DNA of 64,000 nt from Trueperaceae bacterium (GCA_034520945.1 JAXHNB010000005.1:736001-800000); one strand, 5' to 3'; positions 26,457 through 40,685 are shown, numbered from the stretch's first letter. The notes: generated by a model from the sequence alone, not told the origin. A program made the numbers and translations.

Positions 26457-27719
26457 CTAGGTGGAGCCCCGTCGCAGTTGGGCCAGGTAGAAGCCGTCGA
26501 GCCCGCCTAGGGGCAGGATCGTCACGCCGGTGTCGTGGGCATGGTGGGGGAGGGGCGGATCGAGCGGCGCCAATGTGAACTCGGGGTGGCGCGCCAAGAA
26601 GGCCTCCATGCGTGCCGGGCCCTCCGCGCGCAGCAGCGAGCACACCGCGTAGGTGAGGGTGCCCTGCGGCGCCGTCAGCGTGGCGGCGGTGTCGAGGAGG
26701 CGGTCCTGCAGCTCGGTCAGGCCGGCGACGTCCTCCTCGCGCAATCGCAAGGGGATCTCGGGGTGCGCGCGAAGCGTGCCGGTGCCGCTGCAGGGCGCGT
26801 CCAGCAAAACGCGCGGGGCGGGGGGGAGGCCGGCCGGCACGGTGCGGAGGTCGGCGCGGTGGTGCCGGACGTGAAGGCCCAGGCGGGCCAGGTTGCGCTC
26901 CGCGCGCGCGATCTTGTCGGCGCCTTGCTCCACGGCCGTGACGTCGGCGCCGGTGGCGGCCAGGAGGGCGGCCTTGACGCCGCGCCCCGAGCAGAGGTCC
27001 AGGACGCGCGTACCGGCCAGCGGCGCGACCGTGCGGGCCACCTGCGCGGAGGCGGGGTTCTGCGGCTGCACGGCGCCGTCCTGATAGGCGCGCAGCTCGG
27101 CCAAGGGGGCCGACGGTCGCACCCGCAGCGTGTTCGGGAGCGGGCCGGGCGTCACCTCGCACCCCTCGTCGCGGAGGCGCTCGGCCGCGTCGTCGGCGTA
27201 CGCCAGCAGCCACAGCGGGGCGGGCGCGCGCATGGCGGCGGTCGCCGCGGCGGCGTCCTCGCCCAGCAGGTCCTCGAAGCGGGCGTAGAGCCAGGGGGGA
27301 AGCGAGGCGGCCGTGGCGGGGTCGGGCGCGCGTGGCGGCGCCACCCGGCGCAGCACGGCGTTGGCCAGGCCGCTGAGGCCGGGACGCCTGCGGCGGATCT
27401 CGCCGACCCACTCGTTGGCGACGGCGTGGGCGGGCGTGCCGCGGACCAGGCGTTCGTAGGCGCCCAAGCGGAGCGCCTCGCGCACGTCGAGGGGCAGGCC
27501 TCCCGGGTCGCGGAGGTTCGGCGCCAACGCCGCGTCCAGCCACGTCCGGTTGCGCACCGCCCCGTAGGCGAGGTCGGTGACGAGGGCGCGTTCGCGGCGC
27601 GACAGTTCGGCGCCCCGGAGGGCGCCGTCGAGGGCGGGCGTGAGGTAGGCGCCGCGGGCGACGCGGATCACGACGTCCAGGGCCAGCGAGCGCGGGCCGG
27701 TCGCGACGCGCGGCGCCAC
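26457..27719 (-). CDS. rsmB: RsmB/Fmu RNA m5C methyltransferase with NusB-like N-domain
   Basis: VLDLCSGRGVK, LLDAPCSGTG, TYAVCS, DGFY, and N-terminal TDLAYGAVR. Confidence 0.88.
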   Translation of the reverse strand: MAPRVATGPRSLALDVVIRVARGAYLTPALDGALRGAELSRRERALVTDLAYGAVRNRTWLDAALAPNLRDPGGLPLDVREALRLGAYERLVRGTPAHAVANEWVGEIRRRRPGLSGLANAVLRRVAPPRAPDPATAASLPPWLYARFEDLLGEDAAAATAAMRAPAPLWLLAYADDAAERLRDEGCEVTPGPLPNTLRVRPSAPLAELRAYQDGAVQPQNPASAQVARTVAPLAGTRVLDLCSGRGVKAALLAATGADVTAVEQGADKIARAERNLARLGLHVRHHRADLRTVPAGLPPAPRVLLDAPCSGTGTLRAHPEIPLRLREEDVAGLTELQDRLLDTAATLTAPQGTLTYAVCSLLRAEGPARMEAFLARHPEFTLAPLDPPLPHHAHDTGVTILPLGGLDGFYLAQLRRGST

Positions 27720-27727
27720 GGGGCCGC

Positions 27728-28387
27728 TCAGTTGCGCGCGGCCATGATGAAGAACAGCAGGTACATCACGCTGCCGGCGGCCGCGGCGACGTAGGTGAGG
27801 GCGGCCGCGTTCAGCACGCTGCGGGCGCCGTCCGAATCGTTCGGCGTGACCAGGCCCAGCTCGTTCAGCTGCACCATGGCGCGGCGAGAGGCGTCGAACT
27901 CGACGGGAAGCGTGACCAGTTGGAAAAGGACCGCCGCCCCGAACAGCACGATGCCCACCTGCAACAGGCCCGTGGCACCCAACAGGAGGCCGAAGATGGC
28001 CAGGTAGGGGCCGAACCGACCGCCGATGTCGGCGACGGGGACCAAGGTGGAGCGCCACTGCAGCGGGGCGTAGGCGCGGTCGTGCTGGATGGCGTGCCCC
28101 ACCTCGTGGGCGGCGACCGCCATGCCGGCGACGGAGGGCCGGTCATGGATCGCCTCCGACAGGCGGACGACCCTCTTGGTGGGGTCGTAGTGGTCGCTGA
28201 GCTGGCCGCCGACCTTCTCGACGCTCACCTTGTCGGTGAGGTTCGCGTGGTCGAGGATCGCCAGCGCGACCTGCTTGCCCGTCAACTCACTGGCATTGGC
28301 CTTCTTGCTCCAGGTGCCGAAGGTCTGCCTGAGGTACCACTGCGCCCCCAGGGTCATCACCATCATCAGAATGAAGATCGCGAACAT
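27728..28387 (-). CDS. membrane zinc metallopeptidase (YugP family)
   Basis: LSDHYDP, AAHEVGHAIQ, TLPVEFDASRRA, AAALTYVA. Confidence 0.92.
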   Translation of the reverse strand: MFAIFILMMVMTLGAQWYLRQTFGTWSKKANASELTGKQVALAILDHANLTDKVSVEKVGGQLSDHYDPTKRVVRLSEAIHDRPSVAGMAVAAHEVGHAIQHDRAYAPLQWRSTLVPVADIGGRFGPYLAIFGLLLGATGLLQVGIVLFGAAVLFQLVTLPVEFDASRRAMVQLNELGLVTPNDSDGARSVLNAAALTYVAAAAGSVMYLLFFIMAARN

Positions 28388-28510
28388 CGTGTCAGGGTTC
28401 TCCTTCTCCGTAGGGTCGGTTTCCGTAAGGTCGGGTGCCGCGTCCGGGCGGCACGGATCGGGCGTCGCGTCGGGGCGGAGGGACGAGCCCCCGCCGGACC
28501 TGAGTCTATC

Positions 28511-28813
28511 TTACGCAGAAGTCTTGAGCGTTTCGTGAGCTTCCGAGGCCCGCCGCACCGCGCAGACGTGAAATCGCAGCGCCGTACGCTCCTCGTCCTG
28601 CAGTTGCAGCTTCACGAACGACGGCACGGCCGTGAGGTCGAGCTCGTCCTCCGCGAGGTAGTTGCGGGCCACCGCGATCGCCTTGGCGGCCTGGTTGACG
28701 GCCTGCGGGCCGATGGCCTGCACCTCGACCTCGCCGGCGTGCCTGAGAAGGGCAGCGATCGCGCCTGCGACCGAGTTGGGCCGGGAGGTTCCGGAGACGC
28801 GCAACACTTCGAT
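28511..28813 (-). CDS. spoVS: SpoVS family protein, probable ATC start
   Basis: EVLRVSGTSRPNSVAGAIA...AIGPQAVNQAAKAIAVAR. SD AAGGGGGTG lies 7 nt before ATC. Confidence 0.9.
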   Translation of the reverse strand: MEVLRVSGTSRPNSVAGAIAALLRHAGEVEVQAIGPQAVNQAAKAIAVARNYLAEDELDLTAVPSFVKLQLQDEERTALRFHVCAVRRASEAHETLKTSA

Positions 28814-28918
28814 GGTCGAACACCCCCTTGCCCCGGAGGTCGTTCGGGGCACCCCCACGCACGGCCGGTCGTCCGCAGGGGACGCCCGGAGAACGGCCGA
28901 CGGCGCGTTCCCCGTTCG

Positions 28919-28947
28919 TTGACATCGAGTCTACCACCTCGTATACT
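28919..28947 (+). promoter_or_regulatory. sigma70-type promoter of the ilv-leu operon
   Basis: TTGACA (28919-28924), 17-bp spacer, TATACT (28942-28947). Confidence 0.85.
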
Positions 28948-28955
28948 CCTTCACA

Positions 28956-29072
28956 GTGAGCGACGACGCACACACCCCCGTCCAGAACGTTGCCGGCCGC
29001 CGCACGTCGTGCGGCCGCGTGCGTATCATTCGGGTTCACGAGCTAGTATCGCTCGGGGGTGCCCCCGCGTAG
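28956..29072 (+). CDS. putative ilv leader peptide (38 aa, or 17 aa from GTG 29019)
   Basis: MSDDAHTPVQNVAGRRTSCGRVRIIRVHELVSLGGAPA*; the V/I/L cluster uses rare ATT, GTT, CTA and GTA codons. Confidence 0.6.
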   Translation: MSDDAHTPVQNVAGRRTSCGRVRIIRVHELVSLGGAPA

Positions 29073-29096
29073 TCGTTCACCGACGCGTACGTGGTC

Positions 29097-29131
29097 CGCG
29101 CCCCGCCGTTCCAAAAGATCGGCGGGGCGCG
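29097..29131 (+). terminator. 12-bp hairpin in the ilvB leader (attenuator candidate)
   Basis: cgcgccccgccg-ttccaaaagat-cggcggggcgcg; no long U-tract. Confidence 0.6.
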
Positions 29132-29170
29132 TTACGTCGCATTCCAGGCCAAGGGCCGATGGAGGATGCC

Positions 29171-30883
29171 ATGAACGGTGCGGAAGTGTTGATGCACGCG
29201 CTCGAACGCCAGGGCGTCGAGATCGTGTTCGGTCACCCCGGCGGCGCGATCATGCCGGTATACGATGCGTTGTACGACGCCAAGCTCCGGCACATCCTCG
29301 TTCGGCACGAGCAGGGCGGGGCGCACGCGGCCGACGCCTACCACCGTGCCTCGGGCCGGCCGGGGGTCGTCTTCGCCACCAGCGGCCCCGGCGCCACCAA
29401 CCTGGTGACCGGTCTGGCCACCGCCATGATGGATTCGAGCGCCGTCGTGGCGATCACCGGCAACGTCGCGACGGACCTGATCGGCACCGACGCCTTCCAG
29501 GAGGCGGACGTGTACGGCATCACCGGGCCGGTGACCAAGCACAACTACCTGGTCAAGCGCGTCGCGGACCTGCCGCGCATCGTGGCCGAGGCGTTCCACA
29601 TCGCCACCACCGGCCGGCCGGGACCGGTGCTGATCGACATCCCCAAGGACGTCCAGAAGGCGGCGTTCGAGGGGGGGCCGCAGGCGTTCGACGTCGAGAT
29701 CGACCTGCCCGGCTACCGCCCGAACTTGGTGGGGCATGCCGGACAGATCCGCAAGGCGGCCAAGGCGATCCGCGAGGCGAAGCGCCCCATCATGATGGTG
29801 GGGGGCGGCTGCCAGGGCGCGGCGGAGGCGGTCATGGGCTTCGCCGACCGCACGGGCGTGCCGATCATCACCACGCTGATGGGCATCGGCGCCTACCCCG
29901 CGGGCGGACCGCAGGCGCTGGGGATGCCCGGCATGCACGGCACGGTCACCAGCAACCGCGCGATCACCGAGTGCGACGTGCTCATCGGGGCCGGACTCCG
30001 GTTCGACGACCGGGTGACCGGCAAGATCAGCCGCTTCGCACCGAACGCGACCGTGGTGCACATCGACGTCGACCCCGCCGAGATCAGCAAGCTGGTACGC
30101 GCCCACGTCCCCGTGGTGGGGGACCTCAAGGACGTGCTGCCACGCCTGGGGGCCGAGCTCGATCGGCTCGAGATCGACGACTGGTGGGACAGGCTGAACG
30201 CCTGGAAGGCGACGTACCCCGAGCGCTACGAGACCGACAAGCCGCTGGTCACCCAAGAGGTCATCCAACTGCTGCAGCGCGAGACCCGGGGCGACTGCAT
30301 CGTCACCACCGAGGTCGGCCAGCACCAGATGTTCGCTGCGCGCCTGTTCCCGACCCACGAGCCACGGACCTGGATCACCTCGGGCGGGCTGGGGACGATG
30401 GGCTTCGGCCTACCCGCCGCCATCGGCGCGTCGTTCGCCCGGCCGGACAAGCAGGTGGTCTGCGTCGCGGGGGACGGCAGCGTGCAGATGAACATCCAAG
30501 AGCTGGCCACGATCGCCAAGAACCGCCTGCCGATCCTGATCGCCATCGTGAACAACGGGGTGTTGGGCATGGTCCGCCAGTGGCAGGAGCTGTTCCACGC
30601 CGAGCGGTTCAGCGAGATTCACCTCGCCGACTCGAACCCGGACTTCGCCAAGTTGGCCGAGGCGTACGGGATCGAGGGCCACACCGTGTCCGACCGTGAG
30701 ACGGCGCAGCGGCTGGTGCCCGAGGTGTTGAGCCGGCGGGGCCCCGCGGTGATCAACTTCATGGTCCACGAGAGCGACAAGATCTACCCGATGGTGCCCG
30801 CGGGCGCCGGCAACGACGAGATGATCATCGGCGATCAGGAACCCGTCATGGCGCCCGCCGCCAAAGAGGAGACCCCGGCATGA
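29171..30883 (+). CDS. ilvB: acetolactate synthase large subunit
   Basis: FGHPGGAI, VRHEQG, TSGPGATN, SGGLGTMGFGLP, GDGS...NN; GGAGG SD. Confidence 0.96.
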   Translation: MNGAEVLMHALERQGVEIVFGHPGGAIMPVYDALYDAKLRHILVRHEQGGAHAADAYHRASGRPGVVFATSGPGATNLVTGLATAMMDSSAVVAITGNVATDLIGTDAFQEADVYGITGPVTKHNYLVKRVADLPRIVAEAFHIATTGRPGPVLIDIPKDVQKAAFEGGPQAFDVEIDLPGYRPNLVGHAGQIRKAAKAIREAKRPIMMVGGGCQGAAEAVMGFADRTGVPIITTLMGIGAYPAGGPQALGMPGMHGTVTSNRAITECDVLIGAGLRFDDRVTGKISRFAPNATVVHIDVDPAEISKLVRAHVPVVGDLKDVLPRLGAELDRLEIDDWWDRLNAWKATYPERYETDKPLVTQEVIQLLQRETRGDCIVTTEVGQHQMFAARLFPTHEPRTWITSGGLGTMGFGLPAAIGASFARPDKQVVCVAGDGSVQMNIQELATIAKNRLPILIAIVNNGVLGMVRQWQELFHAERFSEIHLADSNPDFAKLAEAYGIEGHTVSDRETAQRLVPEVLSRRGPAVINFMVHESDKIYPMVPAGAGNDEMIIGDQEPVMAPAAKEETPA

Positions 30884-31407
30884 GCGCGCGCCGTCACGTC
30901 ATCTCCGTTACCGTTCGCGACCAGCCGGGGGTGCTGGTCCGCATCGCAGGGCTGTTCGCGCGGCGCGGCTTCAACATCGAGTCGCTGTCGGTCGCGCAGT
31001 CCGAGTCGCCCGGCCTGAGCCGCACGACCTTCGTGGTCAACGGCGACTCGGACACGATCGAGCAGGTGAAGAAGCAGCTGCAGAAGCTGATCGACGTGAT
31101 CCGCGTCAATGACCACACCGAGACCCACTTCGTCGACCGTGAGTTGATGCTGATCAAGGTCGCCGTCCGCCACCCCGAGGATCGGGTCGAGATGCGCCAG
31201 ATCGCGCACGACTTCCGGGCCCGCATCGTCGACGTGAGCCGCCGCGCCCTGATCTTCGAGGTGACCGGCGACGAAGGCAAGATGAACGCGTTCATCGAGC
31301 AGATGCGCGACTTCGGCATCGTCGAACTGATCCGTACCGGCCGCGTGGCCCTGCCGCGTAGCGCCGAATCCACCGAAGCGCCCGAACGCCGCGCCCGCGT
31401 GGCGTGA
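30880..31407 (+). CDS. ilvN: acetolactate synthase small subunit
   Basis: [23 protein letters not shown] and ELIRTG. Confidence 0.95.
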
Positions 31408-31433
31408 CCCGACCCCCTTCAGGAGGCCCCCGC

Positions 31434-32429
31434 ATGGCAGACATCTACTACGACGACGACGCGAACCTGCAACTGCTGGAGGGCAAGACCATCGCCATCC
31501 TCGGCTACGGCAGCCAGGGGCACGCCCACGCCCGCAACGCCCAGGACTCCGGGCTCGACGTGGTGGTGGGGTTGCGGGAGGGCTCGTCCTCCCGCCGCGA
31601 GGCGGAAGCCGCCGGCCTGAAGGTCACCTCGGTCGCCGAGGCGGCCGCGGCCGGCGACATCGTGATGGTGCTGCTCCCCGACGAGGCCCAGGGCGAGGCG
31701 TACCGCGAGCAGATCGCCCCCGGCCTGCGCGAGGGCGACATGCTGATGTTCGCGCACGGCTTCAACGTGCACTTCCATCAGATCGTGGCCCCAGACGGCG
31801 TGGACGTCGCCATGGTGGCCCCGAAAGGGCCCGGCCACCTGGTGCGCCGTGTGTTCGAGCAGGGCGCCGGCGTGCCGTGCCTGCTGGCGGTGCACGTCGA
31901 CGCCACCGGCGAGGCGACGGGGCGCGCGCTGGCCTACGCCAAGGCGATCGGCGGCACCCGCGGCGGCGTGCTGGGGACGACGTTTCAGGAGGAGACCGAG
32001 ACCGACCTGTTCGGCGAGCAGTCGGTGCTGTGCGGCGGCGTGACCGCGTTGATGCAGGCGGGGTTCGAGACGCTGGTCGAGGCGGGCTACCAGCCCGAGA
32101 TCGCCTACTTCGAGTGCGTGCACGAGATGAAGCTGATCGTGGACCTCATCTACGAGGGCGGGTTCGAGCGGATGCGCTACTCGGTCAGCAACACCGCCGA
32201 GTACGGCGACTACCGAACCGGTCCGCGCATCGTGACCGAGAAGACCCGCGACGAGATGCGCCAGGTGCTGGCCGAGATCCGCAACGGCCAGTTCGCGCAG
32301 GAGTACCTGCTCGAGAACCGCGTGGGCCAACCCCGCCTCCGCACCCAGCGCGCCGCGACCGACCGCTCGCAGGTGGCCGAGGTGGGCAAGCGCCTCCGCA
32401 AGATGATGGCCTTCATCGAGGACGGATGA
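31434..32429 (+). CDS. ilvC: ketol-acid reductoisomerase
   Basis: [45 protein letters not shown]. Confidence 0.97.
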
Positions 32430-32536
32430 ACGTGAACACGCCGCGCCCCCTCCTTCCCTCCGTGCTCGGCCGGCGTCTACGGCGCGGCCTCGTCGCGGCC
32501 CACCCGCGACTACCGGGCCAGCTGCGGCTTTTCTGA
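32426..32536 (+). CDS. putative Leu-rich leader peptide upstream of leuA (36 aa)
   Basis: ATGA overlap with the ilvC stop. [36 protein letters not shown] has 8 Leu, including 2 CTA and 2 CTT. Confidence 0.6.
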
Positions 32537-32583
32537 CCGACCGCGGTCCGCGCACGCCCCCTCTTCGGGAAGGAGATAGGAAC

Positions 32584-34143
<1,560 letters not shown>

Positions 34144-34152
34144 GGAGCCCCC

Positions 34153-35751
34153 ATGCGACCGGTCGAGATCTACGACACCACCCTACGCGACGGGACGCAA
34201 GGACAGGGATTCACCCTGACCAGTGCCGACAAGGTCGCCATCGCCCAGCGGCTGGACGCCTTCGGCGTGGACTTCATCGAAGGGGGCTGGCCCGGCTCCA
34301 ACCCCAAGGACGTCGAGTTCTTCGCCCGCATGCGCGACGTGCCGTTGGTGCAGGCGCGGCTGGCGGCGTTCGGAAGCACGCGCCACAAGGGCCGACGCGC
34401 CGAGGACGACCCCAACCTCGGCGCGCTGATGGAGGCGGGCACCTCGGTGGTCACGGTGTTCGGCAAGTCCTGGACGATGCACGTCACTGAAGCGCTCGGC
34501 GCGACGTTGGACCAGAACCTCGACATGATCCGCGACTCGGTGGCGTACCTGGTGTCGCAGGGACGCGAGGTCGTCTACGACGCCGAGCACTTCTACGACG
34601 GCTGCGCGGCCGACCCGGACTACGCATTCCAGACGCTGGCCGCCGCGGTGGAGGGCGGCGCGTCGCGGCTGGTGCTGTGCGACACCAACGGTGGCACATT
34701 GCCCGAGGAGATCGCGGCGCGGGTGCGGGAGGTCGCGCGACGCTTCGACGCCCCGGTCGGCATCCACACCCACAACGACGCCGAGTTGGCCGTCGCCAAC
34801 GCGCTCGCCGCCGTTCAGGCCGGTGCCGGGCACGTGCAGGGGACCATCGGCGGCTACGGCGAGCGTTGCGGCAACGCCAACCTGGTCTCGGTGCTCGCCA
34901 ACCTCACGCTGAAGCTGGGCTGCCCGCAGCCCCAGAACCTGTCGCAGCTTCGTGAGCTGGCGCGGTACGTGGACGAGCGCGCCAACCTGCAACCCGACCT
35001 GCGCGCCCCCTACGTCGGCGACGCCGCCTTCGCGCACAAGGGCGGCGTGCACGTCTCCGCCGTCGCGAAGCTGCCCGAGACGTACGAGCACGTCGTGCCC
35101 GAGTCGGTCGGCAACGAGCGCCGCATCCTGCTGTCCGACCTGTCGGGGCGCGCCAACGTGCTGGCCAAGGGCGATGGCGACGCCGGCGGCGAGGCGAGCG
35201 AAGGCGCGCGCGACGTGGTGATGCGCATGAAGGAGTTGGAGCACCGGGGGTACGCCTTCGAGGGGGCCGAGGCGTCGTTCCAGCTGATGGCGCGCAAGGT
35301 GCGCGGCGAGCACCGCGCCTACTTCACGGTGCACGGCTATACCGTGGTGATCGACAAGCGCGACCACGAACGGCAGCCCCGCAGCGAGGCCAGCGTCAAG
35401 GTCGAGGTCGACGGCATGATGGAGCACACCGCCGCCGACGGCGACGGGCCCGTCAATGCGCTCGACCGGGCCCTCGGCAAGGCGCTGCGCCGCTTCTACC
35501 CCGAAATCGCCGACGTGTACCTGACCGACTACAAGGTGCGCGTGCTTGGGGGCGACGAGGCCGGCACCGCCAGCGTGATCCGCGTGCAGGTCGAGTTCAG
35601 CGACGGAGGCGAACGCTGGGGCACGGTCGGGGCCAGCACCGACATCATCGACGCCTCCTACGAGGCGCTGATCGACGCCATCGAGTACAAGCTGGTCAAG
35701 GACGGCGTCGCCCCGCGCGACGCCTCCACGGAGGCGACCGCGGCCCCCTAG
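34153..35751 (+). CDS. cimA: citramalate synthase
   Basis: YDTTLRDGTQG, EGGWPGSNPKD, YDAEHF, AFAHKGGVH, GYAFEGAEASF. Confidence 0.92.
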   Translation: MRPVEIYDTTLRDGTQGQGFTLTSADKVAIAQRLDAFGVDFIEGGWPGSNPKDVEFFARMRDVPLVQARLAAFGSTRHKGRRAEDDPNLGALMEAGTSVVTVFGKSWTMHVTEALGATLDQNLDMIRDSVAYLVSQGREVVYDAEHFYDGCAADPDYAFQTLAAAVEGGASRLVLCDTNGGTLPEEIAARVREVARRFDAPVGIHTHNDAELAVANALAAVQAGAGHVQGTIGGYGERCGNANLVSVLANLTLKLGCPQPQNLSQLRELARYVDERANLQPDLRAPYVGDAAFAHKGGVHVSAVAKLPETYEHVVPESVGNERRILLSDLSGRANVLAKGDGDAGGEASEGARDVVMRMKELEHRGYAFEGAEASFQLMARKVRGEHRAYFTVHGYTVVIDKRDHERQPRSEASVKVEVDGMMEHTAADGDGPVNALDRALGKALRRFYPEIADVYLTDYKVRVLGGDEAGTASVIRVQVEFSDGGERWGTVGASTDIIDASYEALIDAIEYKLVKDGVAPRDASTEATAAP

Positions 35752-35939
35752 GGGTGTCCGCCGCCGGCGGCGTTGCGGGGGGCGCCCGGCCGTGGCACCG
35801 GTGGCCCTGCGCGGCGACCGCCGCGGCCGGGTCGTACGCGCTGACGCGACGAGGCCTACGAATCGTAGGCGTGCGCCTCCTGGCGCAAGGGATCGGAAAG
35901 CTTGGGCGGGGTCTTGGCCCGTCACAGACACGACTTTGA

Positions 35940-35968
35940 TTGACACGGTCGGGCGTGGGGGATATTCT
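35940..35968 (+). promoter_or_regulatory. sigma70-type promoter upstream of gltB
   Basis: TTGACA (35940-35945), 17-bp spacer, TATTCT (35963-35968). Confidence 0.75.
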
Positions 35969-36115
35969 TTCCGCCACGGCGCGCGACGCGCGCGCCGTCC
36001 GCGCACCCGATTCCTGACTTGCGATTCCCGATCATCCACGTCGCGTGCGTGCACGGGCCCCGTCCCTGCACCCGCCTCTTCGTTTCCGCGCGTTGCCCAT
36101 CCCGGAGGATCCACC

Positions 36116-40685
<4,570 letters not shown>

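Follow-up and report, generated by a model that had tools for sequence, protein, structure and literature searches.

The spacer between ilvC and leuA in the ilvB-ilvN-ilvC-leuA-cimA operon of a Trueperaceae bacterium appears to contain a leader peptide that serves as a ribosome-read leucine sensor, a reading which we hold with moderate confidence and which follows from the combination of an invariant rare dicodon, a conserved reading frame and the reuse of this dicodon in front of leuS. The sensor codon is read here as the CGA-CUA dicodon (32507-32512) located towards the end of the leader ORF, and not as the adjacent Leu-Leu pair that an initial inspection of the DNA (hereafter the sequence-only reading) had singled out; this choice is founded on the conservation of the leaders, on the leaders of leuS and on the CUA control codon of Salmonella, each of which is considered below. 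The leader probably tunes the production of LeuA, the first enzyme of the leucine pathway. Throughout, the window refers to the whole stretch of 64,000 nt that was analyzed (Trueperaceae bacterium, GCA_034520945.1 JAXHNB010000005.1:736001-800000), with positions counted from its first letter.

The leader ORF at the ilvC-leuA junction

The gene order in this part of the window is ilvB-ilvN-ilvC-leuA-cimA, the gene names being derived from NCBIfam profiles (Table 1). The spacer between ilvC and leuA measures 154 nt and, as the sequence-only reading had proposed, a 36-codon ORF starts within the ilvC stop codon: its ATG (32426-32428) overlaps the TGA (32427-32429), and the ORF ends at 32536, its stop being located 47 nt ahead of the leuA start. 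Also confirmed were its eight Leu codons (CTC, CTT, CTC, CTA, CTC, CTA, CTG and CTT, i.e. two CTA and two CTT), the rarity of CTA and CTT, which represent 1.3% and 4.2%, respectively, of the Leu codons in 1493 long ORFs of the window genome, and the exact 9-nt reverse complementarity between CTCCTTCCC (32450-32458, corresponding to the codons CTC-CTT-CCC) and GGGAAGGAG (32567-32575), which forms the SD region of leuA.

Table 1 Coordinates of the leader, its elements and the surrounding genes (positions in the window unless otherwise indicated)
Feature	Position	Strand	Remarks
ilvB	start about 29156, frame ending at 30883		upstream of ilvN
ilvN	30880-31407		NCBIfam
ilvC (ketol-acid reductoisomerase)	31404..32429	+	NCBIfam NF004017, E=4e-161
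Leader ORF	32426..32536	+	36 codons plus stop; ATG in ilvC stop, ATGA 32426-32429
Anti-SD CCCTCCTTCCC	32448..32458	+	leader codons 8-11, with Leu-Leu CTC-CTT
CTA, leader codon 18 (CGT-CTA)	32477..32479	+	second rare Leu codon; not conserved in other leaders
CGA-CTA (Arg28-Leu29), putative family-wide control dicodon	32507..32512	+	
C-rich untranslated tail	32537..32566	+	from leader stop to SD arm
SD-side arm GGGAAGGAG	32567..32575	+	SD AAGGAG at 32570-32575
leuA (2-isopropylmalate synthase), proposed regulated gene	32584..34143	+	NCBIfam NF002086, E=8.8e-226
cimA (citramalate synthase)	34153..35751	+	9 nt past leuA; TIGR00977, E=2.3e-206
leuS leader	G000 contig C5, about 166641-166830	-	outside the window (L291, L292)

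The neighbouring junctions overlap too, that of ilvB and ilvN through ATGA and that of ilvN and ilvC through GTGA. Across 28000-36500, promoter-like sites are present only at 28919-28947 (before ilvB) and at 35940-35968; none was found between 28947 and 35940, thus including the ilvC-leuA junction, and terminator-like sites in 28000-36500 numbered 0. The notion of a mid-operon leader probably coupled to ilvC is supported, its ORF starting in the ilvC stop and the junction being free of any promoter-like site. The cimA gene is possibly co-regulated with leuA.

As regards the two ends of the operon, the promoter-like site located after cimA (35940-35968) reads TTGACA-17-TATTCT. The site ahead of ilvB (28919-28947, within the region 28919-29155) reads TTGACA-17-TATACT, and downstream of it, at 28956, is a GTG-initiated and possibly leaderless ORF of 38 codons. 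This ORF reads ...VRIIRVHELVSL..., contains the rare codons ATT, GTT, CTA and GTA, and is followed, still ahead of ilvB, by an 11-bp GC hairpin (GCGCCCCGCCG...CGGCGGGGCGC) without a T-run. Based on these features, it constitutes a candidate Ile/Val/Leu leader of the whole operon.

No second copy of the spacer was found in the genome, and its interpretation as a repeat or mobile element was dropped on account of this single copy. Rfam searches returned 0 matches at E<=1 in 27000-37000 and, for ten related loci, only a sub-threshold snoRNA match and no match to Leu_leader; a T-box or riboswitch was ruled out because the reading frame is conserved and Rfam is silent. DNA contigs of four runs contain 23 variable positions in 32426-32583, 0 of which represent a substitution in the anti-SD, the CGA-CTA or the SD arm, an observation of little weight since the strains are related; in one low-depth contig from a relative, a C is inserted behind 32569, within the SD-side arm.

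Taken alone, the window constitutes weak evidence for a leader, and the case rests on comparison across relatives. The open frame tells little by itself, because it is already open for 219 codons back into ilvC in a genome of 70.8% G+C, where long open frames are common. The SD/anti-SD duplex, with a predicted energy of -19.6 kcal/mol, attains z=-2.2 and p=0.04 against 200 dinucleotide shuffles, and p=0.08 when wider windows are used. Folding of 32420-32600 lent partial support to the sequestration proposed by the sequence-only reading: the MFE structure pairs 32448-32458 with 32567-32575 and 32579-32580 (11 pairs) and has three internal hairpins in the spacer, but the overall stability of this 181-nt fold is no better than that of shuffled sequences (z=-0.61; 50 of 200 shuffles fold equally well). 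The leader is therefore accepted as real because of the comparative data and not because of window statistics.

Conservation of the leader and of its CGA-CUA dicodon

The 3' end of ilvC was located in 120 of 128 Trueperaceae genomes, a tally that counts G118, whose junction was left out. Of the resulting 119 junctions examined, the 113 with leuA or a paralogue downstream form the basis of the counts reported here, while a metagenome scan provided two informative extra junctions (L213 and L215). A leader was defined as a short ORF directly upstream of leuA, containing an in-frame Arg-CTA and ending 14-163 nt before the leuA start. Such a small ORF precedes leuA in 42 of the 113 junctions, representing 15 of the 36 Trueperaceae genera, and the in-frame Arg-CTA is present in all 42, as CGA-CTA in 37 and as CGG-CTA in five; the window ORF falls within this definition, with its CGA-CTA at codons 28-29. 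Five further junctions carry variants: two have Ala-CTA, one each has CGA-CTT and CGA-CTG, and the fifth is a frameshifted copy.

In 18 of the 42 leader loci, belonging to four genera, the ilvC stop and the start of the ORF overlap as NTGA, and the conserved CTA is always in frame, which bears out the expectation that the stop/start overlap would be conserved. The distance from the start to the CTA in these 18 leaders takes nine values, from 30 to 87 nt, every one of which is a multiple of 3. Leaders of the other genera possess their own SD and start, again with the CTA in frame. In two genomes of genus g8 (L067 and L210) an extra ORF of about 163 codons is positioned between ilvC and the leader, and the leader, equipped with its own GGAGG and start, adjoins leuA; the occurrence of the leader behind an inserted gene indicates that it travels with leuA. 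The leader frame of these two genomes extends into overlap with the leuA start. Leaders of low-GC genera have the common peptide (R)RL[G/T]NNxRL, in which the codons for Gly (GGC/GGT/GGA/GGG) and Asn (AAC/AAT) vary synonymously and CGA-CTA is invariant, and no terminator was seen in the leuA leaders of these low-GC relatives. Conservation of the frame and at the level of codons suggests a translated ORF whose function lies in its decoding. Of the 113 junctions, 50 lack both the leader and a CTA in the tail of ilvC (see below), and the device is therefore dispensable.

Two attributes emphasized by the sequence-only reading are not shared by the relatives. The abundance of Leu codons did not hold up as a conserved trait, since same-genus leaders contain three to four Leu codons each and a close strain has Leu35 replaced by Arg, and two of eight sequences from the genus, as well as every other genus examined, lack the overlap of the Leu-Leu pair with the anti-SD. 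The trait common to every leader is an Arg-CUA, nearly always CGA-CUA, near the end of the ORF. In the window genome, where CTA is rare as stated above and CGA represents 6.6% of Arg codons, CGA-CTA accounts for 11 of 7447 Arg-Leu pairs, yet it is found in 37 of the 42 leaders. This genome has one gene for tRNA-Leu(UAG), and CGA is presumably read by tRNA-Arg(ACG) with A34 modified to inosine.

The sequence CGACTA is present in short frames upstream of genes at 31 places in the window genome, leuA and leuS being among the genes concerned. The leuS leader of this genome comprises TTGACA-17-TAGGAT and, seven bases on, a leaderless ORF with CGA-CTA (MDPRTRRLPRSGPRLR, ending at a stop codon), followed by a hairpin (CGCCCCGAC/GTCGGGGTC) and GTTTCTT in the layout of an attenuator. 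Among 30 leuS loci of the family, a short ORF with CTA precedes the gene in 17 (CGA-CTA in 11 of them), while nine have none and four were cut too short. A hairpin with a T-rich tail is located behind nine of the 12 leuS leaders examined, and in three of ten that were modelled the pairing probability of the terminator collapses when the ribosomal A site is at or beside the CTA, the other seven being uninformative on the terminator response. One codon, CUA, would thus act within one family as the leucine control codon for two unrelated outputs, namely leuS leader ORFs that are followed by terminators and leuA leaders that are terminator-less.

Where the leader is absent, a CTA may be situated inside ilvC. 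In 21 of 71 leaderless junctions, as against one of the 42 junctions with a leader, CTA is the Leu codon of the conserved ilvC motif G-x-R-L-R-K-M-M, located 10-14 codons ahead of the stop (Fisher p=2e-4, calculated for related genomes with kinship ignored); within the last 69 ilvC codons, CTA represents 22 of 118 Leu codons at the motif site versus 15 of 559 at other Leu positions. This CTA, often in the form of CGA-CTA, is found in eight genera without a leader (for example in L008, L009, L012, L017, L053 and L159), and all four leaderless members of the window genus have it, each as CGA-CTA; the window counterpart (32390-32395) is CGC-CTC. Six loci from other Deinococcales families were examined and do not have it, nor do the five scorable loci among six Trueperaceae loci without leuA after ilvC. 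Folding models of the loci with an in-ilvC CTA did not consistently connect it structurally with the SD of leuA. We advance tentatively, and with less than even confidence, the idea that the sensor is the rare codon itself, which may be able to sit in a structural gene, such that the ilvC tail would double as leader and would have swapped with the leader ORF in evolution. If the in-gene CTA is functional, pausing-based amino-acid sensing needs no dedicated leader ORF, and the range of places in which to look for such control becomes wider.

The helix at the leuA SD, the proposed mechanism and its alternatives

Pairing between the anti-SD and the SD among same-genus sequences was counted from anchored pairs tabulated by script, a MAFFT alignment of the eight spacers having misplaced the anti-SD and having been left unused. 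A 7-bp core, CUCCUUC/GAAGGAG, is common to five of the eight sequences, with a sixth retaining 6/7 core pairs, and the two positions flanking this core show three pair types each (C-G, G-C and U-A for one; C-G, U-A and G-U for the other) and are unpaired in two sequences and one sequence, respectively. The anti-SD is missing in two sequences, G006 and the metagenome-derived L213. The compensatory changes that the sequence-only reading had led one to expect are thus visible as two covarying flanking positions in five to six of the eight sequences, but the pairing is absent in two. Adjacent Leu codons number two in the window (CTC-CTT) and three in L004 (CTC-CTT-CTT), with none in G006 or L213.

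A base helix between the 5' region of the leader and the 45 nt before leuA attains p<=0.05 in 16 of the 42 leader loci and is not significant in the other 26, bearing in mind that the sequences compared are related, so that the p-values overstate the case. Its 5' arm corresponds to codons 8-11 in the window genus, lies across the leader start in g43, where a compensatory change is observed (UUG/CAA versus UCG/CGA), and in g27 and g4 is placed just upstream of the leader's own SD, which it takes in. Because the 5' arm sits elsewhere in other genera, the dual use of Leu codons as anti-SD appears to be confined to one clade, the more general theme being a base helix that surrounds the leader and closes at the ribosome-binding site of leuA, a layout also published for the LEU element. 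In L051, L052 and L027, which belong to low-GC genera, the base helix is about 15-17 bp long, the upstream flank and the leader SD pairing with the pre-leuA stretch, including the leuA SD; according to the folding, both ribosome-binding sites would be closed together in these loci.

The stretch from the leader stop to the SD arm, an untranslated tail, is distinctive in base composition, with C at 0.52 and G at 0.27 versus 0.38 and 0.40, respectively, in the ORFs of 21 pooled GC-rich leader loci. Being C-rich and G-poor, this tail (32537-32566 in the window, and its equivalents) is rut-like. Tails of low-GC relatives are U-rich, not C-rich.

According to the mechanism that we propose, ribosomes ending ilvC would restart at the overlapping ATG and read the 36-codon ORF, as suggested by the conserved NTGA overlap and frame. 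The CUA of the CGA-CUA dicodon would be read by a single tRNA-Leu(UAG), and poor charging of this tRNA may cause a pause at the CUA, a parallel being drawn here with the CUA control codons in the leu leader of enterobacteria and with the ORFs that precede leuS. In the window genus, codons 8-11 are predicted from the sequence, and from modest covariation, to form a helix of 9-11 bp with the leuA SD region. When leucine is plentiful, the ORF would clear fast, the helix would re-form and leuA initiation would be low; a pause at the CUA, and also at CUC-CUU and CUA18, may cause queued ribosomes to cover the anti-SD, thereby leaving the leuA SD free. Followers stacked roughly ten codons apart behind codon 29 would be positioned near CTA18 and near CTC-CTT at codons 9-10. 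More speculatively, untranslated leuA RNA with its C-rich tail may also be exposed to Rho.

The effect of ribosome position was modelled by equilibrium folding with a 30-nt footprint placed at each codon, considering single ribosomes. In the window, the modelled accessibility of the SD increases from 0.35 to 0.55-0.59 when a ribosome occupies codons 5-15, and stays at 0.35 when the ribosome is at CTA29. Across 15 modelled loci the CTA was not a favoured position (ranks of, for example, 20/37, 32/34 and 29/40), with L031 alone attaining a CTA rank of 2/17. The earlier claim that a stall frees the leuA SD is consistent with this model as far as codons 5-15, including CTC-CTT, are concerned, but not for a ribosome at CUA29. 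As a single ribosome at the CUA is predicted to leave the SD closed, the link between the stall and leuA would need a queue, kinetics or sterics.

These modelling results suit the switch as it had first been proposed, in which CUC-CUU within the anti-SD is the sensor, a stall there uncovers the leuA SD and the CGA-CUA is incidental: a ribosome on codons 5-15 is predicted to open the SD in the window, with a similar effect in L002 and L007; five of the eight same-genus leaders have CTC-CTT in frame, and L004 has CTC-CTT-CTT; and the layout matches that of the LEU element (PMC1262725). We nevertheless consider this version unlikely, given that the pair is missing from G006, L213 and every other genus while Arg-CTA is present in 42 of 42 leaders, that a common frame in five close relatives amounts to one inheritance and not five, and that CTC, representing 25.7% of Leu codons, is common and therefore a poor starvation sensor. 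It is very unlikely, in our estimation, that the ORF simply ferries ilvC ribosomes over a long spacer and melts the SD helix in a constitutive manner, such that the output of leuA would track translation of ilvC, with no sensing of leucine. Such coupling would agree with the conserved NTGA overlap, with the ATGA/GTGA couplings that also join ilvB, ilvN and ilvC, and with the prediction that the SD opens only with ribosomes on the 5' part of the ORF, yet it leaves unexplained the invariant rare CGA-CUA and its reuse in leuS leaders, as well as leaders that have an SD of their own and stand well away from ilvC, for instance those behind the inserted gene in L067 and L210.

Leucine might also be sensed with a transcriptional output, the C-rich tail functioning as a Rho loading site and the behaviour of ribosomes on the leader determining, in a tna-like logic, whether termination by Rho takes place before or within leuA. 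The composition of the tail in the 21 GC-rich loci and the absence of an intrinsic terminator from the junction agree with this scheme, and Rho has been proposed by Seliverstov et al. for other terminator-less leaders (PMC1262725). With 1-16 codons left before it reaches the stop, a stalled ribosome would, however, cover little of the tail, and a simple model therefore predicts more termination in starvation, which is the wrong sign; moreover, the U-rich tails of the low-GC relatives do not fit, and we rate this scheme as quite unlikely. That GC-rich sequence gave rise to the ORF by chance, and that the 9-nt complement is equally fortuitous, can hardly be entertained: the fold (z=-0.61), the frame open for 219 codons and a duplex p of only 0.04-0.08 would allow it for the window, but it is contradicted by the conserved frame and dicodon across relatives.

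Relation to known leader-peptide systems

The arrangement had been regarded by the sequence-only reading as undescribed in Deinococcota, which requires qualification: Deide_16869 of Deinococcus deserti is annotated as 'putative leuA leader peptide' (de Groot et al. 2014, PMC4007540), while the mid-operon form was not found in print. Literature searches yielded no Trueperaceae leader peptides, and neither a mid-operon leuA leader nor a CGA-CUA control dicodon was found in the literature covered, which did not extend to subscription journals. Although terminator-less leuA leaders (the LEU element) were recognized from their sequences in 2005, there is still no consensus on how they work, and the Trueperaceae leaders add three handles, these being a single invariant rare dicodon open to synonymous replacement, a start tied to termination of the upstream gene, and natural variants with and without the anti-SD helix. 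Short ORFs of this kind are rarely annotated and are therefore likely missed by genome annotation.

Within the order, two loci of another family (L022 and L024) have leuA not beside ilvC and preceded by the leaders MSARGLLLLSLPPVE and MTAFSLLLNRPPVE, each ending at a stop codon, in which a run of CTG/CTT-CTT-CTT is followed by a GC hairpin and a T-run; judging by this layout, they represent classical transcription attenuation and match the D. deserti leuA leader. The window leader resembles Deide_16869 and the L022 and L024 leaders in phylum, in the gene regulated and in consisting of a short leader ORF, but those leaders are promoter-proximal and leaderless whereas that of the window is mid-operon.

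The control codon of the Salmonella leu leader is CUA, and its replacement by CUG lowered sensitivity (PMC1183508, citing Carter, Bartkus and Calvo 1986). As in this enterobacterial leuL attenuator, the Trueperaceae leader is proposed to be read by the ribosome with the rare Leu codon CUA as control. In leuL there are several CUA codons in succession, a promoter belonging to the leader, and an intrinsic terminator plus antiterminator, whereas the Trueperaceae leader has one CUA, preceded by CGA, and that of the window is without promoter or terminator. A short ORF with control codons for the amino acid of the pathway is present, and it is presumably translated.

In ermC and cat, the nascent peptide is arrested in a drug-dependent manner, and the ribosome stalls right on the helix arm. 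The leader proposed here resembles such translational attenuation in that a ribosome stalled on a leader ORF would free the sequestered SD of the next gene, and in the window the SD is predicted to be held in a helix with leader sequence. Melting of that helix by the paused ribosome is not reproduced by the model at CTA29 (0.35 both ways), and about 50 nt separate the conserved pause codon from each of the helix arms, unlike the ermC/cat stall on the arm.

The closest relation is to the LEU element, located upstream of leuA in Actinobacteria (Seliverstov, Putzer, Gelfand, Lyubetsky 2005, PMC1262725), the base stem of which is formed by Leu codons paired with the leuA SD box. The same article cites earlier work in which mutation of the Leu codons in an actinobacterial LEU element left regulation unchanged, a result that calls for caution with the leucine-sensing reading. 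Common to both are a short ORF with Leu codons upstream of leuA, the lack of a terminator, and the pairing of Leu codons with the leuA SD; the likeness is one of architecture, there being no Rfam model for the LEU element. The LEU element occupies the 5' end of the operon and has a run of Leu codons, whereas the Trueperaceae leader is mid-operon, started by the overlap with the ilvC stop, and that of the window has two adjacent Leu codons; also unlike the LEU element, its conserved core consists of one rare dicodon, CGA-CUA, situated well away from the anti-SD. We thus file the Trueperaceae leader as a variant of the LEU-element/leader-peptide kind, new in its mid-operon CGA-CUA form.
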